Notes: generated from the letters alone by a model not told the origin. A DNA stretch of 64,000 nt from an uncultured Candidatus Saccharibacteria bacterium (GCA_964566505.1 CAZMIM010000002.1:46529-110528); one strand, 5' to 3'; counted from the stretch's first letter, positions 8,925-9,185 are shown. Made by a program: numbers and translations.

Positions 8925-9058
8925 TGGGCGACCACCGGGACGCTGCGCTATCTCACTCGCTCTAAAACGCTCTTTAAGAACCCACGGTTCTCAACGCTTC
9001 GCTGCTCTCCTCCACGGGAAAACTAGAGTTTTCCCGACCCCTTTCCTGTTCGATTCCC
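8925..9058 (-). repeat. tRNA-linked repeat element, copy A (partner tRNA-His); putative miniature integrative element or sRNA
   Basis: This 134-nt element lies downstream of tRNA-His, after the tRNA's terminator. Its distal 16 nt (tgggcgaccaccggga, 8925-8940) exactly repeat 9111-9126, the tRNA-His 3' end. Its proximal end (aGGGAATCGAACagg) is the reverse complement of the tRNA-His T-loop. Its core, GGGGTCGGGAAAACTCTAGTTTTCCCGTGGAGGA, is shared with copies B and C. Confidence 0.7.
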
Positions 9059-9110
9059 TTAAATATTTACCCATAAAAGAAAGAGCGCAATAATGCGCTC
9101 TTTCTTTTCT

Positions 9111-9185
9111 TGGGCGACCACCGGGAATCGAACCCGAATTCCAGGTTCCACAAACCTGTGTAATAACCGTTATACCATGGTCGCC
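9111..9185 (-). tRNA. tRNA-His (anticodon GTG) with a G-1 extension
   Basis: The minus strand reads G-GCGACCA...CAGGT-TTGTGGA-ACCTG...GGTTCGATTCC...TGGTCGC-C-CA, a cloverleaf in which the extra 5' G pairs with C73, as expected for tRNA-His. Confidence 0.85.

Follow-up and report, generated by a model that had tools for sequence, protein, structure and literature searches.

The 3' end of the tRNA-His gene in the stretch of DNA analysed here (64,000 nt from an uncultured Candidatus Saccharibacteria bacterium, hereafter the window) is repeated a short distance behind the gene, and this 16-nt repeat bounds an insertion of about 190 bp. Our preferred reading, held with moderate confidence, is that the insertion, copy A, represents a miniature integrative mobile element that has no enzyme gene of its own and has inserted into the 3' end of tRNA-His. 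It is unusual in several respects: such elements measure 130-250 bp and lack an enzyme gene, a single structured core serves more than 20 targets, and the element carries an inverted copy of its attachment sequence. Elements of this kind apparently form a previously undescribed family of miniature, enzyme-less integrative elements that is common in Patescibacteria; a search of the literature returned no description of such elements in this group.

The repeated 16-mer, TGGGCGACCACCGGGA, occupies positions 8925-8940 and 9111-9126 and is identical at 16 of 16 positions, exactly where the earlier note had placed it. Nowhere else in the 64-kb window is it found, even at two mismatches, and the number of occurrences expected by chance is 0.00 (100 shuffles). 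Both ARAGORN and Rfam (59 bits) assign tRNA-His(gtg) to 9112-9184 on the minus strand, so that 9111-9126 corresponds, in reverse complement, to the final 15 nt of the tRNA and one flanking base. Read along the plus strand, copy A starts with the outer direct repeat X_L (8925-8940), the displaced tRNA-His 3' end in reverse complement (tRNA nt ~60-73 plus 1 nt). Next comes a left junction module (8941-8956), made up of an optional 9-nt insert, CGCTGCGCT, and a segment termed Y* (ATCTCAC). The conserved core (8971-9047) is recognized by our covariance model R1 with 88.6 bits (E=3e-21) and consists of a second hairpin, H1 (8974-8982/8986-8994), a small GC hairpin (8995-9004), the motif CTCTCCTCCAC (9005-9015), the central hairpin H3 with the loop TAGA (9015-9023/9028-9036) and the motif GACCCCTTTCC (9036-9046), H1 and H3 both displaying compensatory changes. 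The right arm GTTCGATTCCC (9048-9058) is an inverted target copy composed of rcY (GTTCGAT) and rcX' (TCCC). It has the sense T-loop/T-stem sequence on the strand opposite the tRNA-His gene, and its reverse complement matches the gene at 9123-9133. It can pair with 8937-8940 and, imperfectly, with Y*, which differs from the target segment ATCGAAC in two central bases. A 52-nt spacer (9059-9110) with the hairpin T1 (~9075-9108) lies directly behind the functional tRNA-His, whose 3' end constitutes the inner direct repeat X (9111-9126, plus strand); X is followed by the target segment Y (9127-9133; ATCGAAC), the reverse complement of the T-loop. No credible ORF is found within the 185 nt that separate the two repeats. 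The genes neighbouring copy A encode a cob(I)alamin adenosyltransferase and a 130-aa product without a Pfam match.

Several statements of the earlier note about the anatomy of copy A need adjustment. It had regarded the element as an independent unit of about 134 nt between two terminators. The unit is indeed discrete and located between two terminator-like hairpins, but the repeat is explained by a larger unit, 8925-9126, which extends from the displaced fragment to the regenerated tRNA 3' end and includes the spacer and its terminator. Likewise, the near end of the element is antisense to the T-loop in copy A, yet it is not a conserved element part but an inverted copy of the local target. 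The GGGA...TCCC closing stem is present, but it is abbreviated: the corresponding stem of other copies measures 13-20 bp, of which copy A retains only GGGA/TCCC (z = -2.0). As for the hairpins, the one beyond the element, previously given as 8881-8909, passes the terminator scan as T2 (8877-8911, minus strand; a 15-pair stem with a T tail). T1, previously described as a bidirectional terminator at 9078-9108, is plainly visible as a hairpin at 9075-9108, but its T tail is too weak for the scan. We infer that T2 is the terminator that first followed tRNA-His. At many other loci, too, the displaced fragment is directly trailed by a terminator. Under the integration model, the T1-bearing spacer would have been imported together with the element.

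The window holds two further copies, in line with the three counted in the earlier note, and 14746-14879 and 21633-21751 share the layout of copy A. Copy B (14746-14944, plus strand; R1 97.3 bits) resides at tRNA-Arg(tct) (14930-15002, minus strand), with the repeat TGCGCCCCCGCCAGGA. Its parts are X_L (14746-14761), the junction module (14762-14777), the core (14778-14863), the right arm (~14864-14879), a spacer extending to 14928 and X (14929-14944). Copy C (21567-21751, minus strand; R1 71.7 bits) resides at tRNA-Ser(tga) (21496-21581, plus strand) and has the repeat TGCGGAGAGGGTGGGA, with X_L at 21736-21751, the core at 21647-21718, the right arm at ~21633-21646 and X at 21567-21582. Each of the three copies repeats the 16-nt 3' end of its own tRNA, and the other four tRNA genes of the window lack such a repeat. 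The spacers of the three copies show no mutual similarity, and the closing stem is worn down to 4-7 bp in all of them. Individually folded, the window copies do no better than shuffled sequences; the informative data are the comparative ones and those from well-preserved copies. Mechanically predicted ORFs of 81-82 aa run across copy A (8845-9093, plus strand) and copy B (14646-14891, plus strand). They are not conserved from copy to copy and are almost certainly spurious, although automatic annotation could call them. We also rejected a small ORF behind GGAGG on the tRNA-sense strand, for which inspection revealed no consistent frame among the three copies.

The 47 window ORFs that we scanned are housekeeping genes, including dnaA and dnaN. 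Since dnaN and dnaA lie side by side (41654-44506), the window is chromosomal and probably spans the replication origin region; the genes for RuvA, RuvB, RuvC and RuvX are all in the window as well. Other repeats were seen in passing. About three tandem repeats (294/291 nt, ~80% identity) at 10331-11200 lie within a minus-strand ORF (9809-11788) encoding 659 aa with dockerin and Ig-like (Kre9/KNH) domains. This ORF is flanked by a 37-nt palindromic hairpin, AACAAARCCCCGTCTGTGTGTCTACACAGACGGGGTT, found at 9765-9801 and 11857-11893 with 97% identity. Another hairpin, AACGGCTCACTTT(T/G)AAAGTGAGCCGTT, occurs at 5665-5709 and 63702-63746, 58 kb apart.

The core, about 80 nt long, is widespread. A search with a core-derived pattern yielded 41 loci from species-representative genomes and 50 from metagenomes, and in these 91 public loci the core was found about 100 times. 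Nearly all of the hosts are labelled as Patescibacteria (Paceibacteria, Kaiser-, Wolfe-, Nomura-, Berkelbacteria and 'Saccharibacteria'); a viral contig collection contained no core copy. In a comparison of the window with Rfam 15, whose families include tRNA-like, HEARO, retron and riboswitch classes, only tRNAs reached the gathering score, and nothing credible covered 8925-9060 at E<=10. The model R1, built from 25 copies, detects the three copies and nothing else in the window, and 99 copies in the whole set of fetched loci. Across these 99 copies H1 and H3 are 98% paired, and changes on both sides occur in 8 of 15 pairs (59 cells). These values were not attained in any of 500 shuffles, and the pairing collapses when the register is shifted. 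The central hairpin is thus real, and its covariation, which the earlier note had proposed as a check, is borne out by compensatory changes. In well-preserved copies (L029, L032 and L025) H1 and H3 are accompanied by a closing stem of 13-20 bp (z -4.7 to -5.5). A subfamily of the core defined by a 33-nt pattern (21 matches; L005, L017, L018, L020, L023, L026, L030, L033, L038, L039, L047, L048, L051, L054, L059, L062, L066, L069, L080 and L089) has an H3 that is one pair longer. Its members occur in ordinary chromosomal contexts, for example at gyrB and MgsA. We recognized no target duplication around them; instead, one separate perfect hairpin is found on each side. In L030 and L039 the subfamily member is positioned just upstream of a TTGACA-17-TAGAAT/TACAAT promoter and a gene starting with MKKNIPNPILRG.

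A conserved, covarying core might also belong to an RNA. The element could be a structured small-RNA gene or a cis-acting RNA, its arms being kept complementary or identical to the neighbouring gene, a reading that we consider unlikely. On the tRNA-sense strand, such an RNA could adopt an acceptor/T-arm-like minihelix terminated by the 3' end of the tRNA and act as a processing or stability signal for RNase P, RNase Z or the CCA-adding enzyme, comparable to the t-elements of plant mitochondria. Read from the other strand, it would target the tRNA 3' end as an antisense or guide RNA. The strong covariation of H1 and H3, the 80-90% conservation of the core among several Patescibacteria groups and the folding of pristine copies, far better than that of shuffled sequences, all agree with this possibility, as does the location of the element between two terminators. 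The displaced fragment also fits, being perfect in about 80% of the tRNA-linked copies despite unrelated flanks; this perfection could be explained by selection for a function equally well as by youth. However, there is no conserved promoter, the closing stem is degraded in every window copy, and no folding strand stands out: comparison of G.U with A.C pairs points both ways, and the G.U pairs favour neither strand. The targets and the existence of other cores, discussed below, weigh further against an RNA function.

The same core is attached to more than 20 different gene ends. For 48 pattern matches, ARAGORN identifies a tRNA or tmRNA gene just downstream on the opposite strand (12 tRNA isotypes and 3 tmRNAs), and further tmRNA targets were identified by Rfam or by sequence. 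The tRNA targets, which comprise at least 12 isotypes, and the tmRNA targets are used at their 3' ends. The core is also found at the 3' end of rpmG (L046, L067, L073, L081 and L083) and at the 5' ends of murD-like genes (L008, L011, L057 and L060), fusA (L070), rnhA (L004 and L071) and an HMA-domain gene (L035). Consequently, the description of the element as tRNA-linked in the earlier note holds for the three tRNAs of the window but is too narrow for the family. In every case the element lies outside its target gene, whose end is duplicated. With respect to the core, tRNA, tmRNA and rpmG targets are antisense, whereas murD, fusA, rnhA and the HMA-domain gene are sense. Because targets are found on either strand, a single RNA strand would have no uniform relation to them, which argues against one RNA-level relationship and for recognition at the DNA level. 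The outer gene-start copies at rnhA, fusA and murD each include an ATG of their own and differ from the functional copies mostly by silent changes (as seen by eye, with no formal count). From their sequences, these paired gene starts look like orthologues from the host and from a donor; an RNA function leaves them unexplained.

Copies at different targets have a common order of parts. On the core strand, X (the displaced gene end, which forms the direct repeat) is followed by an optional CGCTTCGCT, Y*, TCC, H1, an optional GC hairpin, CCTTCCTCCAC, H3, GACCCCTTTCC, one variable nucleotide (N), rcY, rcX', the spacer, the second X and then Y (a target segment of ~7 nt) leading into the target gene. 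For 56 of 95 copies we detected a direct repeat of 14 nt or more within 330 nt, and the duplication ranges from 15 to 79 nt. At tRNA genes its boundaries are well defined: in 25 of 42 loci the inner one falls at nt 59/60, 15 nt into the tRNA, and the outer one is 0-3 nt past the discriminator base. In other words, the repeat runs from the T-loop to the tRNA 3' end, as it does in tRNA/tmRNA islands of the tyrosine-integrase type. The inverted arm stops exactly 7 nt past the repeat in 20 loci and 5-9 nt past it in 29. Its length varies between 11 and 21 nt, and its sequence changes with the target. The left junction module after X_L recurs in most tRNA/tmRNA-linked copies. Within it, Y* tracks unusual local T-loops (for instance, ATCGGAC in L019) and resembles the target 7-mer, from which it usually differs in the middle (ATCTCAC vs ATCGAAC), so that ATCTCAC facing rcY (GTTCGAT) has two central mismatches. 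Where the two copies of the gene end are unequal, the arm matches the gene side (16/16 vs 12/15 in L008, 19/19 in L021, 15/15 vs 11/15 in L035). In some loci the direct repeat (37-79 nt) takes in the spacer or terminator in full, namely at rpmG in L081 and L083 and also in L055, L001 and L093.

Comparison with related genomes points to insertion. We located the syntenic tRNA-His locus through the neighbouring adenosyltransferase gene in relatives that are distant (67-76% identity of the neighbouring protein). In L095 the locus is empty. In L093 (3165-3360) it has a different core in the same bracket, with a 45-nt repeat that includes the terminator. In L094 (3080-3385) it has two tandem elements of that kind, and tRNA-His is inverted with respect to the flanking genes. 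Elements are thus present, absent or replaced at one and the same site in related genomes, and the comparison of orthologous tRNA-His loci, which had been suggested as a possible refutation, favoured mobility: one relative lacks the repeat, and two have a different core. Furthermore, displaced fragments of unlike sequence are stacked behind the tmRNA gene of L074 and the tRNA-His gene of L094. In the fetched loci, an element-enriched set, 50 of 145 tRNA/tmRNA genes repeat their own last 15 nt within 500 nt; 34 of these 50 have the present core, about 13 have at least two other cores in the same bracket, and the rest are artefacts. The occurrence of at least two unrelated cores in the same bracket suggests a mode of insertion rather than one RNA function. 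A second core family, with the motifs TTGAGTAT ... GGTACTGAACnTGTAA / ..GTATCTCGCTTCG.., is found downstream of tRNA genes in L093, L094, L092, L033, L050, L064 and L072; its bracket is an inverted T-loop copy, the core, and then the T-loop with the tRNA 3' end. A third family (..CGGAG..GGGGTCGAG..hairpin..GTGACCGAGTCC) has a bracket consisting of GGACTCGAA and a repeated tRNA 3' end. It was seen downstream of tRNA-Val, Lys, Asp and Ser (L016 1774-1950, L032 6651-6870, L034, L036 and L051).

If copy A is an integrative element, its enzyme would come from elsewhere. No integrase, transposase or reverse-transcriptase domain was detected in the 47 scanned window ORFs. Specifically, there is no integrase inside copy A beside its target, as islands would have, and no gene for a DEDD recombinase or a reverse transcriptase, as expected for IS110 elements or retrons, adjoins it among these ORFs. 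No recombinase was found next to the other copies that we examined, nor did we find a related autonomous insertion sequence. When repeats were sought up to several kb away, one large case emerged, L061 (1-9699), in which the core and a tRNA-like right arm at the contig end are followed by 9.6 kb. This cargo encodes an HTH protein, a DUF4238 protein, two proteins of more than 1000 aa (helicase-like and methyltransferase-like by eye) and, at the opposite contig end, the N-terminus of a serine recombinase. It is possible that L061 represents a large form of the element or a nested island. The gene for its serine recombinase was detected by tblastn in no other locus, and a homologue search returned only short, unrelated proteins from outside Patescibacteria. 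A smaller cargo of about 550 nt is present in the element of L074. In L074 (2072-2347, plus strand) and in L040, downstream of tRNA-Ser (6830-6914), we noticed genes for small GIY-YIG-nuclease-like proteins of about 91-100 aa, assigned by sequence motifs only. They lie between the tmRNA or tRNA gene and the displaced 3'-end fragment, and the one in L074 splits a truncated core element.

Such cargo brings up the possibility that the copies are deletion relics of large islands or prophages that once had integrases of their own. In that case the core would represent a module common to the ends of these islands, adjacent to attR; it might be an arm-site region, an origin or a packaging site. We regard this as decidedly unlikely. 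It would accommodate L061, with its core, right arm, 9.6 kb of cargo and serine-recombinase N-terminus, as well as the cargo of L074, and stacked displaced fragments are typical of island hot spots (10.1101/2020.12.28.424599). On the other hand, about 70 copies share both the 130-250 bp size and the boundaries, which random deletions would not produce, integrase fragments are absent between core and target, and L061 is the sole large case, with its far end missing. Moreover, to our knowledge, the arm regions of integrases of different specificity are not normally 85-100% identical and do not show compensatory stem changes.

With the miniature element as the favoured reading, a specific course of insertion can be proposed, modelled on recombination of folded single strands. 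In the integrated state, 9111-9126 would complete the functional tRNA-His, and 8925-8940 would be the fragment displaced to the far end of the insert. In the free element, the attachment site would be located inside a hairpin whose arms, once paired, recreate the target as a duplex that is mismatched in its 7-nt centre. A single exchange of strands at X|Y, followed by replication, would turn A-X|Y-B into A-X-Y*-core-rcY.rcX'-cargo-X-Y-B, and the product order that this single-strand step predicts is exactly the observed one. The core, with H1, H3 and a repeated CCACGG motif, would be recognised by a recombinase supplied in trans, and the arms would define the target. Some loci fit poorly. In L001, L009 and L021 the arm or the displaced fragment mismatches the local target, which breaks the simple scheme. 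Two copies from one genome, L015 (His) and L021 (Leu), have identical cores but wholly different spacers; the integration model would therefore need module exchange or gene conversion between elements. In view of these misfits and of the unlike spacers, our confidence in the miniature-element reading is moderate, and we give the specific hairpin mechanism considerably less weight than that reading.

The miniature-element reading is weakened by another consideration: more than 20 unrelated targets would all depend on a single trans-acting enzyme, a breadth that is not known for any tyrosine integrase. It is tempting to speculate that the core is the recognition module of a homology-programmed recombination, in which an enzyme acting in trans, possibly a host Xer-like one, binds the core while the arms pick the site by base-pairing. 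The arms in question, being copies of the target, would act either in the DNA hairpin or in a transcript made from it. In our estimate this idea is quite unlikely to be right. A different way of linking the arms to the target would be reverse transcription with template switching, where a cDNA primed from the 3' end of the target transcript continues on the core RNA and ends in a snap-back arm. The outer end of the repeat does coincide with a transcript end (the discriminator base of tRNAs; the end of the terminator U-tract for rpmG and L093), and the arms do form an inverted pair around the core. Nonetheless, we find this route highly improbable. No reverse transcriptase gene is nearby, the arm is like the gene-side copy rather than the displaced one, and the 5' ends with independent ATGs and divergent first codons correspond to two orthologues and not to a copy of one transcript. 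The displaced fragment also lacks the extra G expected from a CCA-tailed tRNA. On the same ground we rejected the displaced fragment as a copy of mature tRNA: it has TGGGCGACC, where a CCA-tailed tRNA would give TGGGGCGACC.

The genomes of Patescibacteria are tiny and are thought to contain little mobile DNA. Among the tRNA/tmRNA genes of the fetched loci, however, about one third carry inserts of this kind, although this set is enriched because its loci were selected for the element. As miniature integrative elements, they would imply that integration with a regenerated gene and a displaced fragment is workable for units below 250 bp that have no enzyme of their own. There is a modest chance that the family represents a programmable integration system. 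If the arms set the target, the integration module would be programmable by nature and might serve as a genetic tool in a group of bacteria not yet amenable to manipulation. If the homology-programmed reading is true, a module of ~100 nt could be retargeted to any gene end by changing its arms, and Patescibacteria would possess a site-specific integration system, guided by DNA or RNA, that differs from both IS110 bridge RNAs and CRISPR-associated transposons. On the practical side, the family, which has no Rfam model, can be expected to confuse island finders based on tRNA fragments as well as the annotation of small ORFs, and it offers markers of strain-level variation for metagenomes.

Among known systems, the closest likeness is to islands in tRNA/tmRNA genes, which are defined by a regenerated target and a displaced fragment (the 'Islander' definition; PMC4383910). 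Copy A and its relatives share with them the intact target, the direct repeat that a displaced 3' fragment forms at the far end, the extent of the repeat from the T-loop to the tRNA 3' end and the use of tmRNA. They also share presence or absence between relatives and the stacking of fragments by successive insertions; partial tRNAs stack in the same way in tycheposons (10.1101/2020.12.28.424599). Unlike such islands, the present insert measures 130-250 bp and has no integrase and usually no gene at all, and the family combines one core at more than 20 targets with covarying hairpins and an inverted attachment copy. The elements at murD, fusA, rnhA and the HMA-domain gene are reminiscent of those inserted by dusA-specific integrases, where the gene 5' end is restored by the integrating element (PMC4482086). 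Here, too, the element occupies the 5' end, the gene stays intact and a diverged second start is left behind. In contrast to the dusA case, the present element has no integrase, and the same core is used at 3' ends of RNA genes. With MITEs and REP/BIME repeats the family shares small size, multiple copies, intergenic location, hairpin formation and the lack of coding capacity. In MITEs, however, the inverted repeats belong to the element, whereas here they copy the local target, and the present duplication of 15-79 nt starts at a defined point inside the gene. We rejected a MITE because the arms change with the target, the duplication is not of fixed length and no transposase was found among the scanned window ORFs.

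The proposed mechanism has parallels in systems that recombine folded single strands with an enzyme acting in trans, namely the CTXphi attP(+) hairpin, recombined with dif by XerCD, and the integron attC sites, recombined by IntI. As in these systems, the inverted arms could fold into a duplex mimic of the target with an imperfect centre (L029, L032 and L025), and a single exchange followed by replication would place both arms at one end of the insert. CTXphi and attC use one fixed target (dif or attI), whereas the present arms vary with the target; their inter-arm region is a variable loop, and here it is a conserved structured core. Finally, IS110/IS1111 elements are guide-bearing mobile elements that encode a bridge (seek) RNA together with a DEDD recombinase gene. 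Like them, the present element carries a sequence that, being identical or complementary to the target on both strands, would specify it. Unlike them, it has neither a DEDD recombinase gene nor an Rfam match, its arms are contiguous target copies of 11-21 nt, and its target is duplicated rather than split.
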